Source of the DNA: Cylindrospermopsis raciborskii Cr2010
Lineage (GTDB): Bacteria > Cyanobacteriota > Cyanobacteriia > Cyanobacteriales > Nostocaceae
NCBI RefSeq assembly: GCF_003367075.2
Contig: NZ_CP065936.1
Span: 1,710,001 to 1,742,000, forward strand
DNA length: 32,000 nt
Reading direction: 5' to 3'
Positions 1 through 22,575 of the stretch are shown piece after piece. Position numbers and translations under genes: made by a program. The notes beneath the pieces are model-generated. The model ran no database searches. It was not told the origin of the DNA and worked only from the letters and a program-made list of their open reading frames with translations. Position 1 is the stretch's first letter. Each line of letters begins with the position of its first letter.

Positions 1-629
1 ATCTCCGGTATGGCATAGTGTCCTCGCATATTCGCCTTTATTTCTTTGTATCTTTTTCTCTCTAAATGATATACCTCTAGTGTACCCTTAAACCCATTAA
101 ATATGGCATAATATGGTATCTTTACCGCTTGTTCATACACCCAAAACTTCCCCGCTTTTTTTAGTTTCCCGGTTTCTGGATCTATTTCATCCCCTTCTGG
201 TGGAGGGGAACTGTCTTTTTCCTCCTTTCCATTTTTAGACGCGAATTCTATCACTATGAAGGGAGGTACTTTTTCCTTCCATAGCACATATGACCTTCTC
301 AATTGCCCATTTAGTCTGGATGGCACTCCGGGAACATAGAACCAGTCTGGTGCTTCTACCCCTTTTTCTGGAGGATCTGTGAATCGCCAATATATGCCAC
401 TATCCTGTCCTATACAATAGTCTCCGTTGGGATGGATTTTTTTCAGTAATGGTTCAATTGATGTGGTTAATATTATGCTTTGTGGGTGTTCTTGGAAATT
501 TTTCACAAAATCGTCATCGGAGTCCGGTAACTGGGTATGGTCTGGTAGGTCCAGGGGTTCCTCAGGGAGGGTTACATTTTGGGTGGTGGTTGAAGATTGG
601 GGCACGGTAAGAGGGGGTACGGGGTTCAT
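1..629 (-). CDS. Uma2-family (DUF820, PD-(D/E)xK-like) putative endonuclease, tandem copy 1; the 3' part runs off the window
   Basis: Bases 1-629 are colinear with 1043-1677 of copy 2. The start ATG (CAT on + strand) is at 627-629, behind the same GAGGG ribosome-binding site. There is one in-frame 6-nt deletion near 570 and a few substitutions. It is absent from the ORF track, presumably because no stop lies inside the window. Confidence 0.7.
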   Translation of the reverse strand, partial: MNPVPPLTVPQSSTTTQNVTLPEEPLDLPDHTQLPDSDDDFVKNFQEHPQSIILTTSIEPLLKKIHPNGDYCIGQDSGIYWRFTDPPEKGVEAPDWFYVPGVPSRLNGQLRRSYVLWKEKVPPFIVIEFASKNGKEEKDSSPPPEGDEIDPETGKLKKAGKFWVYEQAVKIPYYAIFNGFKGTLEVYHLERKRYKEIKANMRGHYAIPE

Positions 630-756
630 TTTTGCCCTCAGCTAGGGGGATTTAACCTAATTTTAGCAACTGTTTTTGGTTTCGTGTTGTTTTTTTTGAC
701 CGGTGAAATATCTGATAGTTTAGAACCCAACCCGCATTATATTTAGCATAAGGATT

Positions 757-1677
757 TTATATTTTCTCCGGGTCAATCCCAAGAGAACGTAGATAAGCAG
801 CTAGTTTTTCTTTTTGTTGGCGCTCCTGAGATGCGATAGTTTCTGCTTGCTCTCTAGCCAGACGCTCCTGAGATGCGATAGTTTCTGCTTGCTCTTTAGC
901 CAGACGCTCACGAATAGCGATCGCTTCCGCTTGTTCCGCAAGCTCATTTCCTGTCAATAAGAGATTCCCCTTATTATCCCACCATCTTAACCACTGTGTG
1001 GGTGGTTTCTGGTTGTCATACAGTATTCCCAATTCTATACCCATCTCCGGTATGGCATAGTGTCCTCGCCTATTCGCCTTTATTTCTTTGTATCTTTTTC
1101 TCTCTAAATGATATACCTCTAGTGTACCCTTAAAACCATTAAATATGGCATAATATGGTATTTTTACCGCTTGTTCGTACACCCAAAACTTCCCCGCTTT
1201 TTTTAGTTTCCCGGTTTCTGGATCTATTTCATCCCCTTCTGGTGGAGGGGAACTGTCTTTTTCCTCCTTTCCATTTTTAGACGCAAATTCTATCACTATG
1301 AAGGGAGGTACTTTTTCCTTCCATAGCACATATGACCTTCTCAATTGCCCATTTAGCCTGGATGGTACTCCGGGAACATAGAACCAGTCTGGTGCTTCTA
1401 CCCCTTTTTCTGGAGGTTCTGTGAATCGCCAATATATGCCACTATCCTGTCCTATACAATAGTCTCCGTTGGGATGGATTTTTTTCAGTAATGGTTCAAT
1501 TGATGTGGTTAATATTATGCTTTGCGGGTGTTCTTGGAAATTTTTCACAAAATCGTCATTGGAGTCCGGTAACTGGGTATGGTCTGGTAGGTCCAGGGGT
1601 TCCTCAGGGAGGGAAGTGGTTACATTTTGGGTGGTGGTTGAAGATTGGGGCACGGTAAGAGGGGGTACGGGGTTCAT
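757..1677 (-). CDS. Uma2-family putative endonuclease with C-terminal coiled-coil repeat tail (copy 2, 306 aa)
   Basis: The N-terminal LPDHTQLPDS..FVKNFQEHPQSIILTTSIEPLL, the PDWFYVPG ... FIVIEFASK core and KFWVYEQAVKIPYYAIFN...LEVYHLERKRY match my memory of the cyanobacterial Uma2/DUF820 pattern. The tail contains ERLAKEQAETIASQ repeats and ends KLAAYLRSLGIDPEKI. Confidence 0.85.
   Translation of the reverse strand: MNPVPPLTVPQSSTTTQNVTTSLPEEPLDLPDHTQLPDSNDDFVKNFQEHPQSIILTTSIEPLLKKIHPNGDYCIGQDSGIYWRFTEPPEKGVEAPDWFYVPGVPSRLNGQLRRSYVLWKEKVPPFIVIEFASKNGKEEKDSSPPPEGDEIDPETGKLKKAGKFWVYEQAVKIPYYAIFNGFKGTLEVYHLERKRYKEIKANRRGHYAIPEMGIELGILYDNQKPPTQWLRWWDNKGNLLLTGNELAEQAEAIAIRERLAKEQAETIASQERLAREQAETIASQERQQKEKLAAYLRSLGIDPEKI
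821..946 (-). repeat. Intragenic 42-bp (14-aa, two-heptad) tandem repeat block, 3 units (copy 2)
   Basis: The units are 821-862, 863-904 and 905-946. The first two differ by one base and the third is degenerate and contains HIP1 at 917-924. They encode ERLA[KR]EQAETIASQ. Confidence 0.9.
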
Positions 1678-1804
1678 TTTTGCCCTCAGCTAAGGGGATT
1701 TAACCTAATTTTAGCAACTATTTTTGGTTTCGTGTTGTTTTTTTTGACCGGGGAAATATCTGATAGTTTGGAACCCAACCCGCATTATATTTAGCATAAG
1801 GATT

Positions 1805-2893
1805 TTATATTTTCTCTGGGTCAATCCCAAGGGAACGTAGATAAGCAGCTAGTTTTTCTTTTTGTTGGCGCTCCTGTTCTTTAGCTTCTCGTTCCTGTTC
1901 TTTAGCTTCTCGTTCCTGTTCTTTAGCCATGCGTTCCTGAGATGCAATAGTTTCTGCTCGCTCTTTAGCTTCTCGTTCCTGTTCTTTAGCCATGCGTTCT
2001 TGAGATGCAATAGTTTCTGCTCGCTCTTTAGCTAGACGCTCTTGAGATGCAATAGTTTCTGCTTGCTCTCTAGCCAGACGCTCTTGAGATGCGATAGTTT
2101 CTGCTTGCTCTTTAGCCAGACGCTCACGAATAGCGATCGCTTCCGCTTGTTCCGCAAGCTCATTTCCTGTCAATAAGAGATTCCCCTTATTATCCCACCA
2201 TCTTAACCACGGTGTGGGTGGTTTCTGGTTGTCATACAGTATTCCCAATTCTATACCCATCTCCGGTATGGCATAGTGTCCTCGCCTATTCGCCTTTATT
2301 TCTTTGTATCTTTTTCTCTCTAAATGATATACCTCTAGTGTACCCTTAAAACCATTAAATATGGCATAATATGGTATCTTTACCGCTTGTTCATACACCC
2401 AAAACTTCCCCGCTTTTTTTAGTTTCCCGGTTTCTGGATCTATTTCATCCCCTTCTGGTGGAGGGGAACTGTCTTTTTCCTCCTTTCCATTTTTAGACGC
2501 AAATTCTATCACTATGAAGGGAGGTACTTTTTCCTTCCATAGCACATATGACCTTCTCAATTGCCCATTTAGCCTGGATGGTACTCCGGGAACATAGAAC
2601 CAGTCTGGTGCTTCTACCCCTTTTTCTGGAGGTTCTGTGAATCGCCAATATATGCCACTATCCTGTCCTATACAATAGTCTCCGTTGGGATGGATTTTTT
2701 TCAGTAATGGTTCAATTGATGTGGTTAATATTATGCTTTGCGGGTGTTCTTGGAAATTTTTCACAAAATCGTCATTGGAGTCCGGTAACTGGGTATGGTC
2801 TGGTAGGTCCAGGGGTTCCTCAGGGAGGGAAGTGGTTACATTTTGGGTGGTGGTTGAAGATTGGGGCACGGTAAGAGGGGGTACGGGGTTCAT
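1805..2893 (-). CDS. Uma2-family putative endonuclease with expanded coiled-coil tail (copy 3, 362 aa)
   Basis: Residues 1-236 match copy 2 except one substitution (P vs Q in PTPWLRWW). The tail carries 7 units of the 42-bp repeat, against 3 in copy 2. Confidence 0.85.
   Translation of the reverse strand: MNPVPPLTVPQSSTTTQNVTTSLPEEPLDLPDHTQLPDSNDDFVKNFQEHPQSIILTTSIEPLLKKIHPNGDYCIGQDSGIYWRFTEPPEKGVEAPDWFYVPGVPSRLNGQLRRSYVLWKEKVPPFIVIEFASKNGKEEKDSSPPPEGDEIDPETGKLKKAGKFWVYEQAVKIPYYAIFNGFKGTLEVYHLERKRYKEIKANRRGHYAIPEMGIELGILYDNQKPPTPWLRWWDNKGNLLLTGNELAEQAEAIAIRERLAKEQAETIASQERLAREQAETIASQERLAKERAETIASQERMAKEQEREAKERAETIASQERMAKEQEREAKEQEREAKEQERQQKEKLAAYLRSLGIDPEKI
1869..2162 (-). repeat. Intragenic 42-bp tandem repeat block, 7 units (copy 3)
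   Basis: 294 bp equals 7 x 42. The block includes 21-bp EREAKEQ subunits and ERAETIASQERMAKEQ variants. The 56-aa length difference from copy 2 is fully explained by 4 extra units. Confidence 0.9.
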
Positions 2894-3020
2894 TTTTGCC
2901 CTCAGCTAAGGGGATTTAACCTAATTTTAGCAACTATTTTTGGTTTCGTGTTGTTTTTTTTGACCGGGGAAATATCTGATAGTTTGGAACCCAACCCGCA
3001 TTATATTTAGCATAAGGATT

Positions 3021-4067
3021 TTATATTTTCTCTGGGTCAATCCCAAGGGAACGTAGATAAGCAGCTAGTTTTTCTTTTTGTTGGCGCTCCTGTTCTTTAG
3101 CTTCTCGTTCCTGTTCTTTAGCCATGCGTTCCTGAGATGCAATAGTTTCTGCTCGCTCTTTAGCTAGACGCTCTTGAGATGCAATAGTTTCTGCTCGCTC
3201 TTTAGCTAGACGCTCTTGAGATGCAATAGTTTCTGCTTGCTCTCTAGCCAGACGCTCTTGAGATGCGATAGTTTCTGCTTGCTCTTTAGCCAGACGCTCA
3301 CGAATAGCGATCGCTTCCGCTTGTTCCGCAAGCTCATTTCCTGTCAATAAGAGATTCCCCTTATTATCCCACCATCTTAACCACGGTGTGGGTGGTTTCT
3401 GGTTGTCATACAGTATTCCCAATTCTATACCCATCTCCGGTATGGCATAGTGTCCTCGCCTATTCGCCTTTATTTCTTTGTATCTTTTTCTCTCTAAATG
3501 ATATACCTCTAGTGTACCCTTAAAACCATTAAATATGGCATAATATGGTATTTTTACCGCTTGTTCGTACACCCAAAACTTCCCCGCTTTTTTTAGTTTC
3601 CCGGTTTCTGGATCTATTTCATCCCCTTCTGGTGGAGGGGAACTGTCTTTTTCCTCCTTTCCATTTTTAGACGCAAATTCTATCACTATGAAGGGAGGTA
3701 CTTTTTCCTTCCATAGCACATATGACCTTCTCAATTGCCCATTTAGCCTGGATGGTACTCCGGGAACATAGAACCAGTCTGGTGCTTCTACCCCTTTTTC
3801 TGGAGGTTCTGTGAATCGCCAATATATGCCACTATCCTGTCCTATACAATAGTCTCCGTTGGGATGGATTTTTTTCAGTAATGGTTCAATTGATGTGGTT
3901 AATATTATGCTTTGTGGGTGTTCTTGGAAATTTTTCACAAAATCGTCATTGGAGTCCGGTAACTGGGTATGGTCTGGTAGGTCCAGGGGTTCCTCAGGGA
4001 GGGAAGTGGTTACATTTTGGGTGGTGGTTGAAGATTGGGGCACGGTAAGAGGGGGTACGGGGTTCAT
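3021..4067 (-). CDS. Uma2-family putative endonuclease with coiled-coil tail (copy 4, 348 aa)
   Basis: The core matches copy 3. The tail carries 6 units of the 42-bp repeat. Confidence 0.85.
   Translation of the reverse strand: MNPVPPLTVPQSSTTTQNVTTSLPEEPLDLPDHTQLPDSNDDFVKNFQEHPQSIILTTSIEPLLKKIHPNGDYCIGQDSGIYWRFTEPPEKGVEAPDWFYVPGVPSRLNGQLRRSYVLWKEKVPPFIVIEFASKNGKEEKDSSPPPEGDEIDPETGKLKKAGKFWVYEQAVKIPYYAIFNGFKGTLEVYHLERKRYKEIKANRRGHYAIPEMGIELGILYDNQKPPTPWLRWWDNKGNLLLTGNELAEQAEAIAIRERLAKEQAETIASQERLAREQAETIASQERLAKERAETIASQERLAKERAETIASQERMAKEQEREAKEQERQQKEKLAAYLRSLGIDPEKI
3085..3336 (-). repeat. Intragenic 42-bp tandem repeat block, 6 units (copy 4)
   Basis: 252 bp equals 6 x 42. The 42-aa excess over copy 2 equals 3 extra units. 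Confidence 0.9.
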
Positions 4068-4194
4068 TTTTGCCCTCAGCTAAGGGGATTTAACCTAATT
4101 TTAGCAACTGTTTTTGGTTTCGTGTTGTTTTTTTTGACCGGGGAAATATCTGATAGTTTGGAACCCAACCCGCATTATATTTAGCATAAGGATT

Positions 4195-5079
4195 TTATAT
4201 TTTCTTCGGGTCAATCCCAAGGGAACGTAGATAAGCAGCTAGTTTTTCTTTTTGTTGGCGCTCCTGTTCTTTAGCTTCTCGTTCCTGAGACGCGATCGCT
4301 TCTGCTCGCTCTTTAGCTTCTCGTTCCTGTTCTTTAGCTAGACGCTCACGAATAGCGATAACTTCCGCTTGTTCTGCACGCTCATTTCCTGTCAATAACA
4401 AGTCCCCCTTATTATCCCACCATCTTAACCACGGTGTGGGTGGTTTCTGGTTGTCATACAGTATTCCCAATTCTATGCCCATCTCCGGTATGGCATAGTG
4501 TCCTCGCCTATTCGCCTTTATTTCTTTGTATCTTTTTCTCTCTAAATGATATACCTCTAGTGTACCCTTAAAACCATTAAATATGGCATAATATGGTATT
4601 TTTACCGCTTGTTCGTACACCCAAAACTTCCCCGCTTTTTTTAGTTTCCCGGTTTCTGGATCTATTTCATCCCCTTCTGGTGGAGGAGAACTGTCTTTTT
4701 CCTCCTTTCCATTTTTAGACGCAAATTCTATCACTATGAAGGGAGGTACTTTTTCCTTCCATAGCACATAAGACCTTCTCAATTGCCCATTTAGTCTGGA
4801 TGGCACTCCGGGAACATAGAACCAGTCTGGTGCTTCTACCCCTTTTTCTGGAGGTTCTGTGAATCGCCAATATATGCCACTATCCTGTCCTATACAATAG
4901 TCTCCATTGGGATGGATTTTTTTCAGTAATGGTTCAATTGATGTGGTTAATATTATGCTTTGCGGGTGTTCTTGGAAATTTTTCACAAAATTGTCATCAG
5001 AGTCTGGTAACTGGGTATGGTCTGGTAGGTTGAAAGGTTCCCTAGGGGGAGTTACATTTTGGGTTGAAGGTTGGGACAC
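4195..5079 (-). CDS. Uma2-family putative endonuclease (copy 5, 294 aa, divergent N-terminus)
   Basis: The core is the same from LPDHTQLPDSD onward. The N-terminus is shorter and different (MSQPSTQNVTPPREPFN), and the tail has 3 repeat units with a different unit composition. Confidence 0.85.
   Translation of the reverse strand: MSQPSTQNVTPPREPFNLPDHTQLPDSDDNFVKNFQEHPQSIILTTSIEPLLKKIHPNGDYCIGQDSGIYWRFTEPPEKGVEAPDWFYVPGVPSRLNGQLRRSYVLWKEKVPPFIVIEFASKNGKEEKDSSPPPEGDEIDPETGKLKKAGKFWVYEQAVKIPYYAIFNGFKGTLEVYHLERKRYKEIKANRRGHYAIPEMGIELGILYDNQKPPTPWLRWWDNKGDLLLTGNERAEQAEVIAIRERLAKEQEREAKERAEAIASQEREAKEQERQQKEKLAAYLRSLGIDPKKI
4259..4384 (-). repeat. Intragenic 42-bp tandem repeat block, 3 units (copy 5)
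   Basis: 126 bp. The unit order (EREAKE-rich) differs from copy 2. HIP1 lies at 4292-4299. Confidence 0.85.
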
Positions 5080-5181
5080 GGTTGGTAAGAGGGGGTTTTC
5101 CCCTCAGCTCAGGGGGATTTAACCTAATTTTAGCAACTTTTTTTAGTTTGGTAATCAGGGGATCTCATTGATCTTCGGGGG

Positions 5182-5205
5182 TTGGGTTGAGAAAACCCAG
5201 CCTAC
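5182..5205. repeat. Variant of the GTTGGGTT..AACCCA..CCTAC hairpin repeat
   Basis: The sequence gTTGGGTTgagaaAACCCAgCCTAC contains a 6-bp stem (TGGGTT/AACCCA). It resembles the core of the dispersed repeat at 18126 and 22491, and lies between the vWA gene stop and the Uma2 array. Confidence 0.4.
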
Positions 5206-5324
5206 AAAGGGGGCTGAAATGTCTTTATCAAGATTAGAACGGACGATTGCGAAGCACTCCCTAGGAGAGATCCCACGGTGTTCAGATTTTAAAAACTATA
5301 TATAAAAACTATATATTAATTTTT

Positions 5325-6731
5325 CTAATCTTTCTGAATCGCATAGCATAAGCTACCAATAAACCATCCTGAATGCTGAGGACTTTTGGCAATTTCGGAT
5401 TGCATAGTTTCCGTTCTAACTTTTAGGGCGGTAAAAAATTCTTGTAAATTATAGGTTTTGGAACCGTCTTCCTCTCCGGTTCTGGTTTGCCAATCCCATT
5501 CTTTCCACCAATTGGGAACCGCTAAGGAAGGAGTATTTAGATCAAACTGTAAGTTATAAATACCCGGTTCAGATAATTTATCAGGTTGGATCACTGCTGC
5601 AAATTTGGCTTGATTTTCTTTGGGCAGAATTTGCCAATCTTTTAATTCTATGGCTGAAATTATTTCTGAATTGCTATCTACCTCTACAAACTTACGATTA
5701 AACCTATCTAACTTTTTACCTTTTATCTGGGCTTGAATCATACTTAGATCTACCAGTAAACTATATTCTGAATGGAGTAAATTCACTGTATAGTTAATGG
5801 TTGAACTCTGCTTTAAAGAAGAATTCAATTTTAGCATTTCCTGGTTGCCTTTGCTAACCGTAACCCCCTCCTTCGCTAGGGCAAAAACTTCAGTAATCCC
5901 CTGTGGTAAGGATATGGGTGTCCCATCTAAAACAGAGATTTTATCCAATACATGATCGGGATGAAAGATCATTAAGTTGCTGTTATCACTATTTAGTAAA
6001 TCCTGGTTTGTATTGTATTTTTTGAGCTGACTAAAGTAGTGCTTAATATCCCCATAGGGTCCGATAAATAATACATAAAATGGACGAAACTTTGCTGGTT
6101 CTTGACCTGTGCTGTAGTTAAAACTTCTTGGATTGTTACCTTCTAAATAAATCTTACCATCAAAGTCACTTTTAATAGCCCAAATTCCTACCGCATAATC
6201 TCGATTCTCAATATTATAATAAGTGTCATTAATTACTTTATTTAGTTTGGTTACGTCTCCACTATTTTGCTGCAAATCAGTAATAATGACAGTCATTTTT
6301 TTCTGCTCCTTTTCTGGGGGAACAATAGCAGCATCTATGGGACTGGAAACTTCTGGAAACTGGTTACTACTGCCATCATAAAATACGGAACTAATTCCAG
6401 AATTGTAGTATTCACTACTGGTAATTTTTTGCATGGGACTACCAATTCGATAATATTCAACTGGTAATTTATCACTTAACTCAAATACATTTCTGATAGA
6501 TCTAAGAGTCTTAACATAATTGGTTTCTCCGCCCTTCACATATCCTAACATGGAGCCACTACCATCTAGGTAAATGCTCACATTGAGATTATTTGATTTA
6601 CTAGTATTAGTATTCTCCACAGGAGTATGGGGAAGTTCGCATTTTAGCTCTTCTTCCTTGTTACAAGCTACTATAAAAAGACTAAGTAACAAGACAATCA
6701 AGCCTTTGCGGAAGTATACTTTGTGTATCAT
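5325..6731 (-). CDS. Predicted lipoprotein with von Willebrand factor A (vWA)-like domain
   Basis: The N-terminus MIHKVYFRKGLIVLLLSLFIVAC has a signal peptide plus a lipobox Cys23 (codon 6663-6665). A MIDAS-like DGSGSM (DxSxS) is encoded at 6549-6566. A downstream MTVIITDLQQ sits in the position of the vWA TDG strand. Confidence 0.7.
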   Translation of the reverse strand: MIHKVYFRKGLIVLLLSLFIVACNKEEELKCELPHTPVENTNTSKSNNLNVSIYLDGSGSMLGYVKGGETNYVKTLRSIRNVFELSDKLPVEYYRIGSPMQKITSSEYYNSGISSVFYDGSSNQFPEVSSPIDAAIVPPEKEQKKMTVIITDLQQNSGDVTKLNKVINDTYYNIENRDYAVGIWAIKSDFDGKIYLEGNNPRSFNYSTGQEPAKFRPFYVLFIGPYGDIKHYFSQLKKYNTNQDLLNSDNSNLMIFHPDHVLDKISVLDGTPISLPQGITEVFALAKEGVTVSKGNQEMLKLNSSLKQSSTINYTVNLLHSEYSLLVDLSMIQAQIKGKKLDRFNRKFVEVDSNSEIISAIELKDWQILPKENQAKFAAVIQPDKLSEPGIYNLQFDLNTPSLAVPNWWKEWDWQTRTGEEDGSKTYNLQEFFTALKVRTETMQSEIAKSPQHSGWFIGSLCYAIQKD

Positions 6732-6933
6732 TTTTAACTCCTATTTGTCAAAACTATTTTATTACTAATTCTATTCTGTCAGCAATATTATTACTGATTA
6801 TAAAATAATATTAAGTAACTTTACCACCAGTTCTATTGCAAATCATAGAGTAGTATGTTAGCATAAGGAAAAATAACCATACTGAGTTTCAACCAAACGA
6901 CAACAGGAACACTACAAAAAATAAGGGGGGTCA
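6732..6933. promoter_or_regulatory. AT-rich divergent intergenic region between the vWA lipoprotein gene (-) and the 4-TM/tubulin-like operon (+)
   Basis: A 202-bp gap separates divergent starts. The direct repeat TTATTACT[AG]ATT occurs at 6759-6770 and 6788-6799. A strong AAGGGGGG Shine-Dalgarno lies at 6923-6930, before the ATG at 6934. No confident -10/-35 assignment was possible. Confidence 0.3.
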
Positions 6934-7407
6934 ATGAGATCGAGGGAAATGATTACAATTATTGTACTCTTCTTAGTTGGTGGCATAGCAATGTTTTGGG
7001 GACAAAAGCTGCTCTATGAGAATCAAATTGTACCTATTCAGCAAATACCAGTAGGTTCTTGGCTGGCTAGTGACTATAATACTGCCGCTATCGTCATGTT
7101 TCTTGCTTGTTTTATTCCAACAGTTATTTGGTGTGCACTAGCAGTTAGGAATCGCTTTAATGATGGAGCTGCTACACTTCGATGGAGATTACTGTGGTGG
7201 TTATTGGGGATAATACCAATGCTGACCATTGCGATCGCGGTTTTTTACATTAATCGGAGTAGCGAAGCCCAACTTTCACTGATTTTCTTTTTTCTGCTGG
7301 ATGCCATCTGGCTATACTGGTTACCAACAGCAACCAGTTCCCCGGAAGCGGTAAAATACATTCCACCTTTCGCCTTTTTCTTGCGTCATAAAATAATGGG
7401 AGACTGA
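6934..7407 (+). CDS. Small integral membrane protein (about 4 TM segments)
   Basis: There are four hydrophobic stretches (ITIIVLFLVGGIAMFW, AAIVMFLACFIPTVIWCALAV, LLWWLLGIIPMLTIAIAVFYI, LSLIFFFLLDAIWLYWL). The stop TGA at 7405-7407 is 6 nt before the next ATG, which suggests translational coupling. An alternative start is the ATG at 6949. Confidence 0.7.
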   Translation: MRSREMITIIVLFLVGGIAMFWGQKLLYENQIVPIQQIPVGSWLASDYNTAAIVMFLACFIPTVIWCALAVRNRFNDGAATLRWRLLWWLLGIIPMLTIAIAVFYINRSSEAQLSLIFFFLLDAIWLYWLPTATSSPEAVKYIPPFAFFLRHKIMGD

Positions 7408-7413
7408 GGATAG

Positions 7414-8910
7414 ATGTCAACTTATATAATTGGAATTGGTGGTACTGGGGCTAAATCCATTGAAGCAATCATTCAATTAACCTCCATTGGGCTCTTTGGG
7501 GAAGAGTCCCTAAAGTTATTGTTTGTGGACACTGATGAAACCAATGGGAATGTCAACAGAGCTTTAGAGAGTTTAGACATATATAATAAATGTTATGAAC
7601 TGGGTTTACAAGGTAAACACCCGTGGATGAAAACAGCGATTCAATCCTTGCCTGTATGGTCACCATTTGCTGATAATGACAATGTTACCAACAAAAACCT
7701 GGCAGTTATTTTTAAATACAATCTGATTAAAGAAAATGATGCACCTCTAGGTAACTTGTTTGATGTACTTTATACATCAAAAGAGCGAGAAGCCAGCTTG
7801 GATGTGGGTTTTAGGGGAAGACCTAGCATTGGGGCGGCGGTGATGAGCCAAGTAAGAATGGATACTGCTGATAATGGTTTTTGGGGAAATTTGATGGGGC
7901 AAATTCAACGGGATGCTGGGGGAGGAAGGCGACCAAAAATCTTTTTATGTGGTTCAATTTTTGGCGGAACAGGAGCTTCAGGACTACCAACCATTGGCAG
8001 ATTAATTCATAATAGACTGGAAACACTAAAAATTAGGGATAACGTAGATTTAGGTTGTCTATTTGTCTTACCTTATTTCAGCTTTACGCCTGAAGAGAAT
8101 CCAGAGGAAGTTTATGCTCGTTCTGAACAGTTTCTTTTAAATACAGAGGCGGCACTCCGTTATTATGGCGGTCAACCTCAGGAAACATTTGACGTAGTCT
8201 ATCTATTGGGCAATCAACAATTATCCCCAGTTAGGAAATTTAGTATAGGTAAAAACACTCAATGTAATGATCCTCACTTTATTGAACTCTATGCTGCATT
8301 GGCTGGGAGAGAATTTTTATTAAACCCCCTAACGGGTGAAAAAAAAGTGGTGTTAATGAACCGAGAAAATCCAAAAATCCTAAACTGGGGGGATATTCCA
8401 GACGATGAGAAAGTACGTGCAGAAATGTTGAAAGCCACCCGTTTTGCCTTTGCTTGGTTATCTAATATTGCCCCAGAATTAAAAAAAGCTAAGGACCTGG
8501 GAGAAAAGGAATTTAGACATCGTGCTGGTACGAGTTGGTTTGTGAAATTCTTCCCAGCTCCCAGAGGAATTTTGGGGGGAGGTAATAAGTCAAATGTTGA
8601 TTTTAATGATGCTGAACAACAAAGAGCAATAGAAAAAATTACCGCTTGGTGTAAGGACTATTTGCGCTGGTTAGGGCATATTCATGAATCGCCAGGGGAA
8701 ACTATTCAATTATTTCACGGAGATCACCTTAGAAATTTGAACGATTATAATTTAGCAAATTTAATATTTGCACAGGCTGACCCTCGAGATAGAAATAAAA
8801 AATCTGAGGACACAATTCAGAAACTCAAAGAAAGTTTAAAACCTGAAAAAATAGACCCTCCAAATTTGGGAACTATTGGTCTAGCCAAATCTTTATATCA
8901 TGTTTGTTGA
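7414..8910 (+). CDS. Tubulin/FtsZ-superfamily-like GTPase (Tubulin_2-type), not housekeeping FtsZ
   Basis: An N-terminal glycine-rich loop IIGIGGTGAK is encoded at 7432-7455. LDVGFRGRPSIGAA sits where a T3-like loop would be. SIFGGTGASGLP is encoded at 7963-7983 and resembles the tubulin/FtsZ signature GGGTG[ST]G, with one G missing at the front and an extra Ala. Confidence 0.7.
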   Translation: MSTYIIGIGGTGAKSIEAIIQLTSIGLFGEESLKLLFVDTDETNGNVNRALESLDIYNKCYELGLQGKHPWMKTAIQSLPVWSPFADNDNVTNKNLAVIFKYNLIKENDAPLGNLFDVLYTSKEREASLDVGFRGRPSIGAAVMSQVRMDTADNGFWGNLMGQIQRDAGGGRRPKIFLCGSIFGGTGASGLPTIGRLIHNRLETLKIRDNVDLGCLFVLPYFSFTPEENPEEVYARSEQFLLNTEAALRYYGGQPQETFDVVYLLGNQQLSPVRKFSIGKNTQCNDPHFIELYAALAGREFLLNPLTGEKKVVLMNRENPKILNWGDIPDDEKVRAEMLKATRFAFAWLSNIAPELKKAKDLGEKEFRHRAGTSWFVKFFPAPRGILGGGNKSNVDFNDAEQQRAIEKITAWCKDYLRWLGHIHESPGETIQLFHGDHLRNLNDYNLANLIFAQADPRDRNKKSEDTIQKLKESLKPEKIDPPNLGTIGLAKSLYHVC

Positions 8911-8970
8911 TTAGATTCGCAGACTAAAAATGCTTGATTTAACATAATTCACAAGGTAAGTAATTTAGAT

Positions 8971-11900
8971 ATGGCTCATTTATTGTTACCCCAACTCAAA
9001 GATGATTGCGATGTTAAATCTGGAACTGCTGGTGTGTGGGATGCCCAAGCACCAACTACCTTTGATCAAGTTGGCACAAGTTTAGATTACGCGGCGCCAG
9101 GGGAAATCAAAAATATAAGTTCTGTGCCTACTATTTGGGCCCGTCCTTTATCAGTAGAAATGGCATTACATAATGATAAATATCCCATTCGGGAACAAAT
9201 TATTGTCCAGTGGCAAGGAATGTTAACAGTTTTGGCTCTAGCTGAAGTGCGGGCATTTCCTATTAAGGCTCAACCTTTAGAATTGGGAGCTAGGAAAGAT
9301 AAAAATCTTTTTGCTCGTTCTCTGTATGAGCTGTTACCAGATGACAGAAATAGTATTTACCAGCTCAATAATAATAAAAATCCCTGGGAAGATTTATATA
9401 TTTTCACCTGGAATAATAACCCTGTGGGGATGACTTCTCCCAGCACCTTAGTTGTCCCATCAGAAGAAGGTATTTGGGATGGTTTACCTTGGTGGAATCC
9501 AATTAAAATGGGATTTGAACCTGTACATGGGTATTTGAATAGCACTGAAAAAGCCCAGTTAGTTTTTTGGTTAAACAACCTCAAAGAGGAAATTGGCAGA
9601 GCTAATGATGGAGAAAGAGATAATACTAAAAAAGCAGTAAATATCATATTTGGACTAATCAATGATTTTATTCGCAGTTTGGGAGTAACATCGGGACTTG
9701 ATTTCCAATTAACCAATAATCAAACATTTTTCGATGTTTCCTTAAACAAGGGAGCTTTATGGGGACTAAATTTTCCCGTAAAGGTGCAACCAAGAGAATC
9801 TAATATTCGGGTTGTTCCTAGCATCAATAAACCCCATGTTAAACCCCTGTTAATCATCGATAGAGATATAGCTAACAGTTGGAATGAGCCATCCCAAAAT
9901 ATTTGGGTTCATGAAGGTAAAACCTTAGCTGCTTTACGCCCTGAAGATATAGAAAAATGGAATAAAAGTAGAGAAGTAATTTGTGTCAAGTCACAAGAGC
10001 TGTTTTTACCCGAATTGAAATTTATTGACCAGGGGGGAATATTACCTAATGCTCTACTTCCTGAAGGTGCCCAATCCCTAACATTTAAAAGTGCGCCTAT
10101 TACACCCTTAATTCCCATTAATCCGATTCTATTGGATTACTTTACTCCAGAATATTTATCTAGCAAAATAGTCGGGTTTCAGATCAATAGAAATGGTGGT
10201 GGCACATCCTTAGTCAAAGTTACATTAACCATACCCTTGTATGGAATTAAGGAAGGGAGAACACCTCAGAATTTCTATGTTTACAAAGAATATCCTCTTT
10301 TAGAGGAAAATATCATTTCCGAAGTTCCTGTGTTAGAAATATGGCCTAATTTCCAGGTGCAGGGATGGAAAGAATACTACGGCTTTTACTACGATGCTGG
10401 TTTAGGAGAAGAAACATTTCAAGTCAGTTTTCCTACTGCTGAAAAAACCCATAGTTTTTCAGAAAAAAATGAAATTTATCAAGTAGCTAAATTGAATGAG
10501 TTTCCATCTTTTCTTAAATGTAAAGATAATTACAAAAACACCATTGGTCTAATTTTATTACCAACTCCACAACCTATCAACCTAGGGGGTCAATGGGTAG
10601 TTGGTGTTGATTTTGGCACATCTTTTACCAATGTCTATGTCAATAAAAATGACAGATTGGTAGAACGTTTAGATCTAGAAAATCTCCACTGTCAAGTTAC
10701 TGATGTTTCTATTGATACTAGATTCCCTGCCTTATTTGAATTTTTCATTCCCGAAAATTTTATCCCTGAAGATAAGCCTTTTCCCCTTTCTACTGTGCTG
10801 ACAACTAAGGGTAAAACTAATGCTGGGGAAGACCAGGTAAGTCCAATTTTGGATGGTCGTATTTATATTCCTGATCTCCAATCGTTTGATCCTGAACAAC
10901 CATGGATAAAAACTAACCTGAAATGGACAACTACTAACCTGACCGCTAACGAACTGTTTCTCAAACATTTGGCATTGCATATTACAGCTTTAGCGGCTAA
11001 GAATGGTGTAAGAGAGATTCAATGGTCTTTATCATTCCCCTCCGCCTTTTCTTCAACAGAACAGAATAGATATATTAAGAGGTGGAGTTTATTAACTGGA
11101 GCATTAGTAGATACTACGGGAATTATCCATAAGACTCCCACAAGAGATGATCCTAATTATTTTAAGACTGAAAGTCTAGCAGTTGGACAATACTTTGCTG
11201 AACAAGAAGGATATGATTTAGTTGGTAGTACTTGTATTGATATGGGCGGTGGGACTTCAGACATTTCTATTTGGCAAGATGATCAACTGCTAGATCAGTG
11301 TTCTATTTTGTTAGCGGGTAGGGAGTTATTTTCCCAGTTTATAGAAATGAACCCTGATTTTTTGAAAAAATTAGATCCAAATATCAAAGACATTAAGGGT
11401 AAGCTCAAGGGTGCTGCTTTCTATGCTAAATTGGATGTTTGGATGCGTTTAGAATCAGCCAATTGGCTAGAAAAGAAAAGAGACAGATTTGAAGAAGATA
11501 GGGAATTTCAAGGACTTATACGTCTGATGGCAATTGGTATTTCTGGGTTATACTTCTATATAGGTCAAATTCTCTCTGTTTTGTCTCAAGAGCAAAAATA
11601 CTCTAGAGATGAAATTACATCGGTTTATATTGGTGGCAATGGCTCTCGTTTATTACACTGGTTAGCAGAAGGTGGTGAATTTAATCGCCATTCAGAAATT
11701 AATGCTTTGTTTAATAAAATGATGAGTATTGCTGCCAAATTACCTCAGACAGACCAACCCACACTTCTAAGTCAAAACCCCAAGGATGAAGCTGCTTGTG
11801 GTTTGGTTTTAAGAGAGAGAAGATTAAGAGGTTTGGGTAGGAATGATAGAGATCCGATTATTGCTGGTGAGGACTGTATTATTAATGGTCAAACTTTTGA

Positions 11901-12231
11901 CTATCACGATCGTTTAAATTTCAGAAGTGATATTAGTACATATCAAATCTCTTTCAATCAGTTGAAATTGTTTTTAAATTCCTTTCATACCAGCCTAGAT
12001 GAACTACGTATTGAGGGTGTGAAACCATTAGAAACCTACCAGGTTAAGGAAAATTTAGATGACCCAGATCCAGACTACAATGCAAAATTGTGGCGTGCAA
12101 CAGAAAGAGAATTGAGAAATGATCTTAATAGTATCCGAGGTAGTATTGAAGATATTAGGCAAGAACCACCTTTTATAATGGCATTAAAAGCTCTTTTGAG
12201 GGTTCTAGGCAAAGAATGGGCCGGAAAGTAA
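8971..12231 (+). CDS. 1086-aa protein: unrecognised N-terminal half plus C-terminal Hsp70/actin-fold (ASKHA) ATPase module
   Basis: Phosphate-1-like VVGVDFGTSFTNV (DFGTS at 10609-10623). Phosphate-2-like CIDMGGGTSDISIW (11239-11262; compare Hsp70 DLGGGTFDVS). Adenosine-motif-like VYIGGNGSRLL (11629-11646; compare Hsp70 LVGGSTRIP). The order and spacing fit the ASKHA fold. Residues 1 to about 540 carry no motif I recognise. Confidence 0.8.
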   Translation: MAHLLLPQLKDDCDVKSGTAGVWDAQAPTTFDQVGTSLDYAAPGEIKNISSVPTIWARPLSVEMALHNDKYPIREQIIVQWQGMLTVLALAEVRAFPIKAQPLELGARKDKNLFARSLYELLPDDRNSIYQLNNNKNPWEDLYIFTWNNNPVGMTSPSTLVVPSEEGIWDGLPWWNPIKMGFEPVHGYLNSTEKAQLVFWLNNLKEEIGRANDGERDNTKKAVNIIFGLINDFIRSLGVTSGLDFQLTNNQTFFDVSLNKGALWGLNFPVKVQPRESNIRVVPSINKPHVKPLLIIDRDIANSWNEPSQNIWVHEGKTLAALRPEDIEKWNKSREVICVKSQELFLPELKFIDQGGILPNALLPEGAQSLTFKSAPITPLIPINPILLDYFTPEYLSSKIVGFQINRNGGGTSLVKVTLTIPLYGIKEGRTPQNFYVYKEYPLLEENIISEVPVLEIWPNFQVQGWKEYYGFYYDAGLGEETFQVSFPTAEKTHSFSEKNEIYQVAKLNEFPSFLKCKDNYKNTIGLILLPTPQPINLGGQWVVGVDFGTSFTNVYVNKNDRLVERLDLENLHCQVTDVSIDTRFPALFEFFIPENFIPEDKPFPLSTVLTTKGKTNAGEDQVSPILDGRIYIPDLQSFDPEQPWIKTNLKWTTTNLTANELFLKHLALHITALAAKNGVREIQWSLSFPSAFSSTEQNRYIKRWSLLTGALVDTTGIIHKTPTRDDPNYFKTESLAVGQYFAEQEGYDLVGSTCIDMGGGTSDISIWQDDQLLDQCSILLAGRELFSQFIEMNPDFLKKLDPNIKDIKGKLKGAAFYAKLDVWMRLESANWLEKKRDRFEEDREFQGLIRLMAIGISGLYFYIGQILSVLSQEQKYSRDEITSVYIGGNGSRLLHWLAEGGEFNRHSEINALFNKMMSIAAKLPQTDQPTLLSQNPKDEAACGLVLRERRLRGLGRNDRDPIIAGEDCIINGQTFDYHDRLNFRSDISTYQISFNQLKLFLNSFHTSLDELRIEGVKPLETYQVKENLDDPDPDYNAKLWRATERELRNDLNSIRGSIEDIRQEPPFIMALKALLRVLGKEWAGK

Positions 12232-12312
12232 GACCGCAGATTACAAGTGGGCAAACTAAATTGCCCGCTCCCTTGCCCAAAGTTTATCATTTATATAATG
12301 TGGAGGTTAAAG

Positions 12313-13110
12313 ATGCAAGATTGTCCTGTATGTGGGTGGAAATATAACAAGTATAATATAAGTATAGAAACAGGTGAGTTTTGTCCACAATGTGGTTGGC
12401 ATTTGTTCCCAGCTCCTCATAATATGAGAGCAGTATCAGGTGAACTACAAACAGTAAAGTGGGCCAGAAAAACCTGGGACAGATTATCTCAATTGCAGAA
12501 GGAATGTTCACTTTTACAGGAAAGAAATCATTCATTACTAAAACAATATTTGGCAAAAATAGAGGATATCCAGGCTAATACTCAGAATTTGCCAGAAATG
12601 CTCAGTATTCTACGGCAAATTAATGAAAAAAGCCAAGAAAAAGACTCTTTCGGTAATCAAACACAAACAACTAGGCCTGGGGATTATGAGGAGGATAAAC
12701 AAGTAAGTAACTATGAAATTGATGACCCAGAAATAACTAGTTTGGTGGAGAATTATAATAATCACGCGGAATTTACAGATAAGATAGATGTTTCTGAAAC
12801 GGAAGAAAGCAAGTCTCATCGTTGGTCTGGTGGCAAAGATCCAGCAATTTTTGAGTTGAATTCCAGAGGTAGGGGAGACTATTGGATTATTGCTAATCAA
12901 TATTTGGTGCCAAAACTCAAGCATAAAATTAATCAGCACAGTTATAAAACTATATCAGTGTTATTTGATTTCCGGAATTATGACGACAATGAGCATGTAA
13001 GTTTAGATGATATGATGCTGGTTAAACCTGCTAAGGTTATCCCTATTCCTAATCAAGAAAAATGGCAATTACAAGACACTGGAATCTTAGAGTTTAAAAC
13101 ACAAATATAA
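12313..13110 (+). CDS. Zinc-ribbon protein with coiled-coil linker and C-terminal shared G-x-LEF domain (paralog 1)
   Basis: I prefer the ATG at 12313, which follows a GGAGG 7 nt upstream, over the track's GTG at 12247. CPVCGW...CPQCGW (12322-12399) gives four Cys in a zinc-ribbon arrangement. The C-terminal domain at 12730-13095 aligns with the three downstream paralogs. Confidence 0.7.
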   Translation: MQDCPVCGWKYNKYNISIETGEFCPQCGWHLFPAPHNMRAVSGELQTVKWARKTWDRLSQLQKECSLLQERNHSLLKQYLAKIEDIQANTQNLPEMLSILRQINEKSQEKDSFGNQTQTTRPGDYEEDKQVSNYEIDDPEITSLVENYNNHAEFTDKIDVSETEESKSHRWSGGKDPAIFELNSRGRGDYWIIANQYLVPKLKHKINQHSYKTISVLFDFRNYDDNEHVSLDDMMLVKPAKVIPIPNQEKWQLQDTGILEFKTQI

Positions 13111-13147
13111 GCCCAAACATAAAAATTAAAAAAACTTATAAAAAACT

Positions 13148-14578
13148 ATGAATAAACTTATGAAACACCACTTTTACCTGACCCTCACATTATCTAGTAT
13201 ATTGCTCTTGGTTTCTCCCGTTCGTGCTGTAGATGATCTGGTGCAAGATCCACCACCGGGTAATATAACTAATATTGCCATAGGTGTCAATCAGCAACAG
13301 AATATCCCAGAAAAATTTGCAGGGTTAAAAAATGCGGTAAGATCCTTCAATCGGAATTTAAAGAATTTTGTTCAAGATAAAAAAGATACTGGAAATTTGA
13401 ACTCTCGTGCGGTTCTTGCCCAAATTAATGACCTAAAGCAGGAGATTGCTACCTTACCTCAAACTCCCCTCTTATCTCCCCCGGTTGCTAGGAGTAATGC
13501 TATCCTTAAAGAACTTGACCGTGCTACCAAATACTTGGAAAATGGATTAGAACCGAAAGGAGTAACTGGAATACAAAAATATTTGGGGTTTTTTGCCAAA
13601 AAAAAAGTAAACAAAAAATATTATGGAAACTTTGGCAAAACAACACAGGAAGAAATAGAGAAATTTACTAATGCAAAAATCCAACAGTTAGAAAAGGAGA
13701 TTACAACCATTCAATCTTTGACTGGTAAAACTGGGATAAAATCAGTAGCAGTATTAAGTACTAACAGTATTAGCAATATCCCAATTTCCTCCACCAAAGT
13801 GGATCCTAAGTCAAATAATAATGAACCCAATAATAATGCGAAAGAACTCGCAGCACTCAAAAGTAGATTAGATGGAATGGAGAAAACAGCAATAATCATA
13901 GGTTTGATCTTTTTCATCGGTATTTTTGTTTGTATATATGTATTGTCTCAAATCATAGGAAATCCAGAAATGATCAAACGACTTAACAGACTTGATCAAT
14001 CTAACAATAATACTATGAAAAAGTTCAATTATTTAGAAACCCAGTTAGAGGTCATACGAGATAAGCAAAAAACTTTAATTGAGAAAATCAATAACTTAAG
14101 TAAATTAGATAGGTTTAATGGTGAGCAAGTTTCAATTCCCGAACCTCCTAAACTACCAGTAGATAAACGTTATCAATCACAAAAATTACCATTCATACCC
14201 AATAATTTGGAAAATCCTATCATTGTACTCTATAACAACAAGGCTAATGTGCTAATTGATAGAGCAATTCCAGTGTCGGAGGCTAAACTTACAGCTTATG
14301 AGCGTCGCTTGGGTCGTTATACTCAACCTGTTTTAGAGGAAACTAGACGGGGTAATTATTGGGTTATCATCGAAGGTACTGTGAACTATCTTGTTCCTAA
14401 ATTTGACATCAGAATTAATAGTCATAATTATAGTACAATATCTCTATTTTTTGAGTGTTTTAAATATGATCACAAGAGCATAAATGATTTTAAGGATTTT
14501 AGACTGATTAGTCCGGCAATAGTTTCCTCAACCGGTGACAAATGGGAGTTAGTTGAACGGGGAGAGTTGGAATTTTAA
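13148..14578 (+). CDS. Single-pass membrane protein: signal peptide, about 210-aa ectodomain, TM, coiled coil and C-terminal shared domain (paralog 2)
   Basis: The signal peptide is MNKLMKHHFYLTLTLSSILLLVSPVRA|VDD and the TM segment is AIIIGLIFFIGIFVCIYVLSQII. The shared domain at 14213-14575 ends in ERGELEF. Confidence 0.75.
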   Translation: MNKLMKHHFYLTLTLSSILLLVSPVRAVDDLVQDPPPGNITNIAIGVNQQQNIPEKFAGLKNAVRSFNRNLKNFVQDKKDTGNLNSRAVLAQINDLKQEIATLPQTPLLSPPVARSNAILKELDRATKYLENGLEPKGVTGIQKYLGFFAKKKVNKKYYGNFGKTTQEEIEKFTNAKIQQLEKEITTIQSLTGKTGIKSVAVLSTNSISNIPISSTKVDPKSNNNEPNNNAKELAALKSRLDGMEKTAIIIGLIFFIGIFVCIYVLSQIIGNPEMIKRLNRLDQSNNNTMKKFNYLETQLEVIRDKQKTLIEKINNLSKLDRFNGEQVSIPEPPKLPVDKRYQSQKLPFIPNNLENPIIVLYNNKANVLIDRAIPVSEAKLTAYERRLGRYTQPVLEETRRGNYWVIIEGTVNYLVPKFDIRINSHNYSTISLFFECFKYDHKSINDFKDFRLISPAIVSSTGDKWELVERGELEF

Positions 14579-15712: not shown

Positions 15713-16690
15713 ATGGTTAATTCAGATGATATCCTCGCTAGAATTCAAAAGATAGAAAGCTACCTATCTACAGCTGATGCAAGAAACAATGGCCCGGTCA
15801 TGGTTACTGGTGCTTGTAATATGGAAAAAATTATTCCCGTAAATATCTCGGAAGAGGAAATAATAGAAGTTTATAATGAAGTACCCGGGGTTTTACTCAG
15901 AAACTCAATTGTTACACAGTTAACTGATGCAAGTTATCGGGATGGAGACCAGCCCATTATTTTACAACCCGATGACTATGGTAAGTATTGGTTAATTGTC
16001 TCGGATGAAGATAACATTTTTGTTATACCCTCTATTGAGGTTAAGTCTTATATTTATAGACTAAAAAGCATGGCTAAAGTATTTGATTTTCAGGGTGGTA
16101 GTCCTTCTACAGATAATCATTATTTATTAATTAAACCCGCAAGATTCCAGACTTTACCCAGTGGAAGGGAATGGAAAATGGAGGAAAAGGGGATTTTAGA
16201 GTTTACTAATCATGGTGGAAAAGATTCACTGGCTAAATCTTTGCACAAGTCTATACAGAATAATCAGACAAATACCAATTCGGAAATCTCGAAAATTCAT
16301 CAGGAGTTAAATAAGATAAAATCTCAATTAGAACATATTTCTTCCCAGGGAGACTGGCAAGCTTCTATATCCGAAATAAGAGACAATCAAGCAAATACCA
16401 ATTTGGAACTCATGAGAGCTAATCAACAATTAGACCGACAGTTAAATGAGATAAAATCTCAATTAGAACAAGTTACCCCCCAGGAAGATTGGCAATCTCT
16501 TATTTGGGAAATAAGAGATAATCAAGCAAATACCAATTTGGAACTCAGGAGAGCTAATCGACAGTTAGACCGTCAATTAAATGATATTAGCTCCCAACTG
16601 GAGCAGTTGAGATCCCAAGATATTAGACTCCAAATAGATTTACTCAGGGTACGCTTAGAATCTTTAGAGAGCAGGTCAAGTAGAGATTAA
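15713..16690 (+). CDS. Soluble protein with N-terminal shared domain followed by 45-aa coiled-coil repeats (paralog 4)
   Basis: The shared domain at 15851-16204 (…GKYWLIVSDEDNIFVIPS…LLIKPARF…EWKMEEKGILEF) aligns with the C-termini of paralogs 1-3. A Q/N/L-rich repeat region follows. Confidence 0.75.
   Translation: MVNSDDILARIQKIESYLSTADARNNGPVMVTGACNMEKIIPVNISEEEIIEVYNEVPGVLLRNSIVTQLTDASYRDGDQPIILQPDDYGKYWLIVSDEDNIFVIPSIEVKSYIYRLKSMAKVFDFQGGSPSTDNHYLLIKPARFQTLPSGREWKMEEKGILEFTNHGGKDSLAKSLHKSIQNNQTNTNSEISKIHQELNKIKSQLEHISSQGDWQASISEIRDNQANTNLELMRANQQLDRQLNEIKSQLEQVTPQEDWQSLIWEIRDNQANTNLELRRANRQLDRQLNDISSQLEQLRSQDIRLQIDLLRVRLESLESRSSRD
16253..16645 (+). repeat. Intragenic tandem repeat, about three units (41, 45 and 45 aa; 135-bp period)
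   Basis: The units start at 16253, 16376 and 16511. Units 2 and 3 both begin IRDNQANTNLEL[MR]RAN[QR]QLDRQLN[ED]I and are highly similar at the nucleotide level. Confidence 0.85.
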
Positions 16691-20126: not shown

Positions 20127-20333
20127 AGAAAATCACAAGTATGTTTAATATTAACTACTAGACTAGCATTCCTTAACTTACTCCTTACAACACCATCCCC
20201 GACCATAAATTTTAACTTATGGAATTTATGGACATCTGGAGTGCTAAACTAGAGATGAACAAAATAACTAGTCTAACTTAAACAATTCTACCCAAGTAAC
20301 TCAGTATTTTACTATTTCTCAGGCGTTGCCAGG

Positions 20334-21548: not shown

Positions 21549-21585
21549 TTTAGCCATTCTCAATCTTTCTAATCATTTCTTAACT

Positions 21586-21846
21586 ATGCCACACCCATTG
21601 ATGTATGAAGAGGAAAATTTTGTTGTTCTGGAAACTAACCAAGAAGAACAGTTTTTGACGAAGCTAGAATTGTTAGAAAAGTTGCAAAACACTTTAAGTC
21701 AAATGCCTATAGAAGATATACCTTTAGATGTGAGAAAAATTGGATCCTTGATAGAACAGGTGAACCATTTGATTGATACCACCTGCGAATTAGATTTGGG
21801 ACCAGGGCGATATTTACAATGGTATGCTGTCAGATTAGAAAAGTAA
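21586..21846 (+). CDS. Small conserved hypothetical protein (86 aa)
   Basis: I prefer the ATG at 21586 (MPHPLMYEEENF...) because the track ORF start at 21502 overlaps the sasA 3' end. No family was recognised with confidence. Confidence 0.5.
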   Translation: MPHPLMYEEENFVVLETNQEEQFLTKLELLEKLQNTLSQMPIEDIPLDVRKIGSLIEQVNHLIDTTCELDLGPGRYLQWYAVRLEK

Positions 21847-21864
21847 AAGCGTCTTGATATGAGA

Positions 21865-22419: not shown

Positions 22420-22490
22420 GATTTTAGATGCTGATCATTTATTGATATTGGCAAGTATTTTACACTATTTGGGCGCTATCTGAGATTTGC

Positions 22491-22575
22491 GGAGGCACAA
22501 TTATTTGCAGGATGGGTTAGCGAATCCATGGGGGTGTTGGGTTTCATACTTCAACCCAACCTACGTTCATCTTAT
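22491..22575. repeat. Dispersed intergenic repeat (SDR/MITE-like), copy B
   Basis: It shares both ends with copy A (GGAGGCACAATTATTTG[C/T]AGGATGGGT ... GTTGGGTTTCATACTTCAACCCAACCTACGTTCA[T/C]CTTAT). The stem is formed by 22536-22543 and 22553-22560. Confidence 0.85.

Follow-up and report, generated by a model that had tools for sequence, protein, structure and literature searches.

A tandem array of near-identical Uma2 family genes with heptad-repeat tails of differing length in Cylindrospermopsis raciborskii

A five-gene tandem array

A 32,000-nucleotide stretch of the genome of Cylindrospermopsis raciborskii Cr2010 (contig NZ_CP065936.1, positions 1,710,001 to 1,742,000; hereafter the window) begins with five head-to-tail genes of the Uma2 family (PF05685), which occupy window positions 1–5079 on the minus strand and are separated by four spacers (Table 1). 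A first-pass annotation made from the sequence and its open reading frames (ORFs) had described a five-copy tandem array with 127-bp spacers and an almost invariant core. A repeat search, together with the ORFs, recovers the same arrangement: five copies with 98–99% identity and start-to-start spacings of 1042, 1216, 1174 and 1048 bp, core identities of 98–100% among the window copies, and four spacers of exactly 127 bp each. The five-gene array is thus confirmed as real and lies far beyond chance expectation.

Copy 1, at the edge of the array, has diverged from the others, with 93% amino acid identity and a different N-terminus. The remaining copies differ from one another by an N-terminal insertion or deletion of two codons, a few single-nucleotide polymorphisms (SNPs) and the repeat region in the 3′ part of each gene, where 42-bp and 21-bp repeats account for all differences in length. 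The copy truncated by the window edge had been taken for the first of the series; in the direction of transcription it is the 3′-most gene (copy 5). Its identity to the last copy of the corresponding array in strain GIHE 2018 is 99.6%, against at most 97.4% for the other copies there, and it is therefore probably the terminal copy. We infer that the window array consists of five copies and that the gene hsdM lies roughly 0.4 kb past the left edge.

The closest protein matches are Uma2 proteins of C. (Raphidiopsis) raciborskii, and sister strains carry arrays at the same locus. There are six copies in GIHE 2018, one of them frameshifted and a further one with a damaged 3′ end, eight in CS-505 and eight in the complete genome of G7. 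A five-copy array with spacers of 139–140 bp is present in C. curvispora, in a different neighbourhood. Intact genes make up 29 of the 31 complete copies. This comparison supports the earlier view that the array is genuine.

Tails built from heptads

We defined the tail of each protein as the segment from the conserved WLRWWD motif to the stop codon. The corresponding 3′ gene region is composed of 21-bp and 42-bp units that encode heptads such as ERLAKEQ, AETIASQ, EREAKE[QR], ERMAKEQ and ERQQKE, and the number of these modules ranges from 3 to 16 across copies, giving tails of 64–155 amino acids. Among 32 tails, 30 are distinct and none is shared inside one genome; the tail of window copy 4 is identical to that of copy 5 in GIHE 2018. 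Tail lengths differ by multiples of seven residues in 31 of the 32. The family of length-variant isoforms that had been suggested from the window is therefore present, as the tail lengths of copies 1–4 illustrate (Table 1).

All tails share one ending, QQKEKLAAYLRSLGIDP[EK]KI, and the terminal motif KLAAYLRSLGIDPEKI is the same in every copy. When the tails are written as strings of heptads, the first and last modules are kept and the middle is variable, a pattern that fits unequal exchange within the repeats. In homologues from other genera, the best internal tail period is 7, 14, 21 or 28 residues in 94 of 99 cases, which supports a structural constraint of the coiled-coil type on the tail, and an end motif G[IVL][DNS]P is found in 104 of 120 homologues. 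We read the tail as a putative heptad-periodic stalk of the coiled-coil type.

Purifying selection, exchange and age

Selection on the core was examined with an alignment of 615 nt (205 codons) from 28 copies. There are 47 variable sites, of which 37 are synonymous and 10 non-synonymous (ratio of non-synonymous to synonymous polymorphism, pN/pS, 0.07; binomial p = 3.5e-17), a pattern which shows, at the level of sequence, that strong purifying selection acts on the core throughout the array. A four-gamete test finds all four gametes in 100 of 231 informative site pairs, and such pairs also occur inside single genomes (11 in CS-505 and 22 in G7); variants have therefore been exchanged between copies. 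The inner copies hold strain-specific variants in common and the C. curvispora copies group together, whereas copy 1 has a distinct signature and is orthologous across strains. As judged from the alignment, these patterns show gene conversion and concerted evolution, with the edge copy escaping homogenisation.

To calibrate age, we used the housekeeping part of the window (positions 20300–32000; 11.7 kb) and loci retrieved through its DUF1815 protein. This segment is 99.95% identical to GIHE 2018 and 99.1–99.97% identical to nine other loci, two metagenome contigs among them, so that housekeeping divergence between strains is 0.03–0.9%. Core differences within arrays amount to 0–13 of 615 nt among copies 2–8, or up to about 2%. 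These exceed the divergence of the strains, and the array is therefore older than the strain splits. The first-pass annotation had proposed a recent amplification, which does not agree with this result or with the presence of the array in four C. raciborskii genomes and in C. curvispora. On this comparison, the near-identity of the cores is a product of concerted evolution and purifying selection rather than of youth. Even between the window and GIHE 2018, which are 0.05% apart in the housekeeping segment, matched cores differ by 0.5–1.3%, copy number differs and heptad content differs in at least two tails. The array thus appears to be continually and quickly reshaped by unequal recombination.

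Upstream regions of the copies

The four spacers differ from one another by 0–4 bases, and all four finish with GAGGG-CAAAA-ATG, as expected from the ribosome-binding site that had been assigned to each of them. The region upstream of copy 1 shares its 3′ portion of about 65 nt with the 3′ part of every spacer and is unrelated further upstream; here, the GTG start and a GAGGGG sequence are 22 nt apart. All five genes, copy 1 included, are preceded by a single occurrence of a 25-nt motif, GTTGCTAAAATTAGGTTAAATCCCC, where chance expectation is zero. The motif includes TGCTAAAAT, which resembles an extended −10 element, and its conservation makes plausible the promoter that had earlier been proposed for each spacer. 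The best promoter-like match lies upstream of copy 1. No terminator-like sites were found on the coding strand of the array.

On the opposite (plus) strand, terminator-like hairpins are present inside every copy (190–225, 1232–1267, 2448–2483, 3622–3657 and 4682–4705). These sit in the SPPPEG-coding insert of each Uma2 gene and probably arise as a side effect of the coding sequence. The spacer contains no ORF, matches no Rfam family and has no significant RNA fold (z = +1.3); a known RNA element was rejected as its identity after Rfam, tRNA and RNA folding searches all came back empty. In G7, one spacer (our locus L008, 10979–11134) measures 156 bp instead of 127 bp, which results from a 29-bp duplication of ACGAAACCAAAAACAGTTGCTAAAATTAG that includes the extended −10-like motif.

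Table 1 Features of the Uma2 gene array, with positions counted from the first nucleotide of the window
Feature	Position	Strand	Description
Copy 1 upstream region	5080–5154	−	Promoter-like TTACCA-16-TAAAAT (with TG); GAGGGG
Copy 1	4195–5079	−	Uma2, 294 aa, GTG start; edge copy, ortholog of the first copy in other strains
Copy 1 tail	4195–4431	−	78 aa; heptad string BFIGC; conserved end motif
Spacer 1	4068–4194	−	127 bp; GTTGCTAAAATTAGG motif; GAGGG 5 nt before ATG
Copy 2	3021–4067	−	Uma2, 348 aa
Copy 2 tail	3021–3383	−	120 aa, 11 heptad modules; 42-bp × 4.4 repeat at 3115–3299
Spacer 2	2894–3020	−	127 bp
Copy 3	1805–2893	−	Uma2, 362 aa
Copy 3 tail	1805–2209	−	134 aa, 13 heptad modules; 21/42/63-bp repeats at 1872–2149
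Spacer 3	1678–1804	−	127 bp, identical to spacer 2
Copy 4	757–1677	−	Uma2, 306 aa
Copy 4 tail	757–993	−	78 aa, 5 heptad modules; 42-bp repeat at 821–933
Spacer 4	630–756	−	127 bp
Copy 5	1–629	−	Uma2, 3′ part cut by the window edge

Family, fold and putative active site

The assignment to Uma2 and to the PD-(D/E)xK nucleases, which had been made without database searches, is borne out by profile and by predicted structure. All four complete copies match the Pfam Uma2 profile with 57.4–58.6 bits (cut-off 27, E ~1e-15), and the array proteins already bear the RefSeq name Uma2 family endonuclease. We modelled copy 2 as a monomer with AlphaFold2, using 42 homologues as the alignment (mean predicted local distance difference test score 83). 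The model has a disordered N-terminus, an alpha/beta core (residues 51–234) and an uninterrupted helix (residues 243–340) that is followed by the last eight residues. When this model is compared with the PDB by Foldseek, ranks 1–7 are all solved structures of the DUF820/Uma2 type (9Y1L, 6OKH, 3OT2 and 1WDJ), with probabilities of 0.84–1.0 and TM-scores on the target of 0.46–0.53. Thus, sequence and the modelled restriction-endonuclease-like PD-(D/E)xK fold agree in placing the proteins in Uma2. Searches of PDB sequences with a single protein or with a 42-sequence profile gave no significant match, and fold comparison alone recovered the Uma2 structures.

D97 and K163 do not vary among the 42 homologues, E130 is conserved in at least 90% of them, and the segment around K163 aligns with the K-F-x-x-Y-E helix of 9Y1L. 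From what is known of the family, we take D97, E130 and K163 to be the putative catalytic positions. The array proteins lack a signal peptide. Matches of the tail to Pfam FAZ1_C fell under the cut-off and were rejected as an effect of repeat composition.

Genes around the array

In GIHE 2018, CS-505 and G7, the upstream flank of the array is formed by the same 468-aa gene and tubulin-like gene cluster that are present in the window. The genes adjoining the array encode a 468-aa lipoprotein-like protein with a DGSGS motif (von Willebrand factor A type), a 157-aa membrane protein, a 498-aa tubulin-like protein, a 1086-aa protein and a 287-aa protein. Searches with the neighbours found nothing in PADLOC (468-aa, 157-aa, tubulin-like and 1086-aa proteins), NCBIfam or PHROGs. 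The array lies in a sharply bounded hypervariable island, because positions 5095–13854 of the window have 86–95% DNA identity to GIHE 2018 compared with the 99.95% of the housekeeping part (20300–32000). This agrees with the accessory region that the first-pass annotation had perceived.

Downstream of the array, GIHE 2018 and G7 carry a Type I restriction–modification (R-M) operon, hsdM-hsdS-hsdR, on the same strand, and the ATG of hsdM lies 29 nt past the last Uma2 stop codon. The HsdS proteins of GIHE 2018 (L006) and G7 (L008) are 47% identical and their HsdM proteins 99% identical; the low HsdS identity implies different Type I target specificities in the two strains.

In CS-505, an IS607-like element with serine resolvase and TnpB/Cas12f-like fragments is inserted between copies 1 and 2 (L007, 7164–8545). 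This insertion is specific to that strain, no tRNA was found and the array has no close viral or plasmid relatives: IMG/VR viral contigs yielded no relative, and the Uma2 genes on plasmids are merely 25–37% identical. We therefore rejected the array as cargo of a mobile element, phage or plasmid. A type II toxin–antitoxin module, which would have a small antitoxin gene next to the toxin in a two-gene operon, was also rejected, given that the 127-bp spacers are devoid of ORFs, significant RNA structure and Rfam families; published work, too, regards Uma2 as a solo gene.

Elsewhere in the window, a tubulin-like protein, which matches Pfam Tubulin_2 exactly at the cut-off (27 bits), is followed by the 1086-aa protein (7414–12231, plus strand). 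The latter has no match in Pfam, PADLOC, NCBIfam or PHROG. The order of this pair is kept in all fetched C. raciborskii loci and its sequence is very divergent. A further ORF (15713–16690) encodes a coiled-coil protein with a weak, sub-threshold likeness to JetC/LmuB-type models and contains a 135-bp × 2.1 tandem repeat with 86% matches (16305–16584).

Uma2 paralogues of C. raciborskii outside the array are single genes. In other C. raciborskii genomes (L015 and L016, 8204–14135), a single close paralogue with 89% core identity accompanies a distant Uma2 gene, and these genes are flanked by two C5 DNA methylase genes and a gene for a SinI-like restriction enzyme.

Relatives and comparable systems

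Homologues in other genera have the same architecture, which consists of the core, WLRWWD..GNLLLTG.ERA, a repeat-rich helix and KLAAYLRS[LI]G[IV][DN]P. Genes of this Uma2 subfamily are single in Tumidithrix and in Pseudanabaena-like genomes. Among 80 metagenome loci, two copies were present in three and more than two in none, although this sample is biased because short-read assemblies would break at arrays. One metagenome contig from another cyanobacterium (L071, Ga0308414_1030632; 2.5 kb) carries two adjacent near-identical Uma2 genes at positions 3–1756. The tails of this pair contain different numbers of AEQEK[QH]R heptads, and the phenomenon therefore has at least two independent origins. 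The contig begins inside the first copy, and more copies may exist upstream.

The Uma2/DUF820/COG4636 family (PF05685), which is abundant in cyanobacteria and includes TT1808 (1WDJ), Ava_3926 (3OT2), 6OKH and 9Y1L, resembles the array proteins in Pfam match, fold and the putative acidic and lysine active-site positions. The solved proteins, of about 150–190 aa, are without the heptad-periodic helix of 64–155 aa and the terminal motif of the array proteins. Uma2 genes have been reported mostly as cassettes of paralogous genes, and the protein has been proposed as a solo toxin (PMC2701414; Makarova et al.). The idea that Uma2 genes are typically scattered singly thus holds for the sampled relatives of this subfamily but not for the family as reported. 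The 5–8 members of the array are not divergent paralogues; their cores are 98–100% identical and evolve in concert. Thermosynechococcus sp. TA-1 has tandem arrays of 11, 3 and 3 copies of RPN (recombination-promoting nuclease/transposase_31) genes, reported along with an expansion of Uma2 genes (PMC9403480). These are likewise lineage-specific tandem genes of a nuclease family in a cyanobacterial chromosome, but they belong to another protein family, no concerted evolution or repeat-length isoforms are described for them, and the TA-1 Uma2 copies, unlike those of C. raciborskii, are not reported as arrays (PMC9403480). The literature searched holds no description of the C. raciborskii array or of Uma2 genes in Cylindrospermopsis or Raphidiopsis. 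Clustering of Uma2 paralogues is already known, and a homogeneous array of 5–8 copies with heptad-length isoforms was not found in that literature.

Short in-frame helical repeats, and the Type I R-M operon that directly follows it in two strains, give the array a likeness to the specificity subunit HsdS. In the Type I enzymes EcoR124I and EcoR124II, the number of in-frame repeats in a helical spacer of HsdS alters the geometry of a complex that acts on DNA. That repeat lies between the two DNA-recognition domains of one subunit and sets the spacer length of the target. The array helix, in contrast, follows a predicted nuclease domain, and no DNA-recognition domain is known. The streptococcal emm, mrp and enn genes are adjacent paralogues with heptad-repeat regions that change length by recombination between repeats. 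Their products are secreted surface proteins under immune selection, whereas the array proteins have an enzyme core and no signal peptide.

Interpretation and rival explanations

The explanation we consider probable is that the locus is a long-lived, fast-changing array of Uma2 nuclease-like genes that provides a set of stalk-length isoforms with a defence or toxin-like role. Its descriptive and evolutionary part is close to certain, and its functional part is much less so. An ancestral gene was duplicated head to tail along with about 65 nt of upstream sequence, and copy number has come to differ from strain to strain (at least five in the window; six, eight and eight elsewhere). The 21-bp modules of the 3′ part expand, contract and reshuffle, such that one core is joined to helices of differing heptad number. 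Unequal homologous recombination between units of about 1.05–1.3 kb, together with slippage of the 21-bp modules, would drive these changes. Each copy may be translated from its own GAGGG and ATG. The copies are probably transcribed from an extended −10 promoter within each unit and by read-through, the latter being suggested by the terminator-free coding strand. The stalk might mediate oligomerisation, set the distance from the nuclease core to whatever the C-terminal motif contacts, or both. The cell would thereby make stalk-length isoforms of one nuclease, most likely one that acts on DNA in a defence or toxin-like capacity, a role suggested by the R-M neighbourhood, by the paralogues beside a SinI-like R-M system and by the published solo toxin proposal.

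A more specific extension of this explanation, in which the array is a selected library of stalk lengths with the Type I R-M system as a possible partner, appears doubtful to us. Stalks of 3–16 heptads would span very roughly 6–20 nm. Only helices of equal length could align both ends in register, which might insulate the paralogues from one another as homo-oligomers; alternatively, length might set the distance from the cutting site to an anchoring contact of the invariant KLAAYLRSLGIDP motif at the C-terminus, for which the adjacent Type I R-M machinery is a possible site. Gain and loss of heptads, along with copy turnover, would then diversify an intracellular defence nuclease. We know of nothing like such a stalk-length library described for any PD-(D/E)xK enzyme.

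Several observations weigh against the favoured explanation. The left end of the array falls outside the window, and promoter-like matches are no commoner than in shuffled sequence, so that the promoter of each spacer is a putative one. The hydrophobic seam of the tail is weak (mostly Ala, Ile, Leu and Gln); because of this, and because the model is a monomer, the tail may not form a coiled coil but a single charged helix. With regard to the R-M association, CS-505 keeps all eight copies even though its hsdM is truncated to 187 aa and the remainder of its R-M operon is replaced, the C. curvispora array adjoins no R-M genes and the other fetched loci of the subfamily contain no paired hsdM. A general linkage of Uma2 with hsdM was thus rejected, and the adjacency is local to GIHE 2018 and G7. 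The Uma2 protein matched nothing in PADLOC-DB 2.0, NCBIfam or PHROGs, and the literature searched reports no Uma2 nuclease activity, expression, oligomeric state or phenotype.

The main rival, which we judge unlikely, is that the isoforms are a neutral by-product of RecA-type unequal exchange and 21-bp slippage, with selection for only one or more working genes. Tail diversity could indeed be neutral, because a 21-bp module makes every slippage event in-frame automatically. Copy number is also free to vary with no visible correlate, GIHE 2018 has two damaged copies and CS-505 has its IS607-like insertion within the array. Near-identical direct-repeat arrays are, however, expected to be deleted quickly unless they are retained, and these arrays persist in every genome examined, the second species included. 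Purifying selection is moreover seen in all copies and not in one, and nearly all complete copies are intact. Less probable again is an amplification selected for dosage, in which the cell benefits from a larger amount of one nuclease and the tails differ only incidentally. The near-identical cores, and the provision of each copy with its own ribosome-binding site, ATG and conserved upstream motif, would suit this explanation. Selected amplifications are typically unstable and strain-specific, whereas this array predates the strain splits. Of the two options offered by the first-pass annotation, isoforms and dosage, the former has therefore gained support, while dosage alone conflicts with the finding that no two tails within a genome are identical.

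It is very improbable that copy 1 alone is expressed and that the others serve as silent donors of tails, in the manner of pilE and pilS. Copy 1 is distinct, conserved in position and preceded by the best promoter-like match, and exchange between copies is evident. Yet each inner copy is a whole gene that has an ATG, GAGGG and the conserved upstream motif, and purifying selection acts on its N-terminal and core codons. The copy 1 tail is short and nearly the same in three of four strains, only that of CS-505 being two heptads shorter; a variable expression site would be expected to behave in the opposite way. An assembly artefact, whether a collapsed or an expanded repeat, has next to no likelihood: short reads cope badly with repeats of about 1.1 kb, but every copy is set apart by SNPs and a tail of its own, and independent assemblies, among them megabase contigs and complete chromosomes, show 6–8 copies at the locus.

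Significance

Uma2/DUF820 is among the most abundant protein families of cyanobacteria, and no function or activity has been reported for it in the literature searched. The locus described here constitutes a natural experiment in which isoforms with a common core are distinguished almost exclusively by heptad number. The array, within a hypervariable island that adjoins R-M genes, differs even where strains are 0.05% apart elsewhere, and it offers a practical marker for discriminating closely related strains of a harmful bloom-forming species. Should tail length be irrelevant to function, the array would still be a clean bacterial case of concerted evolution from which an edge copy escapes. 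Should it matter instead, tail length would provide a direct handle on how Uma2 proteins act.

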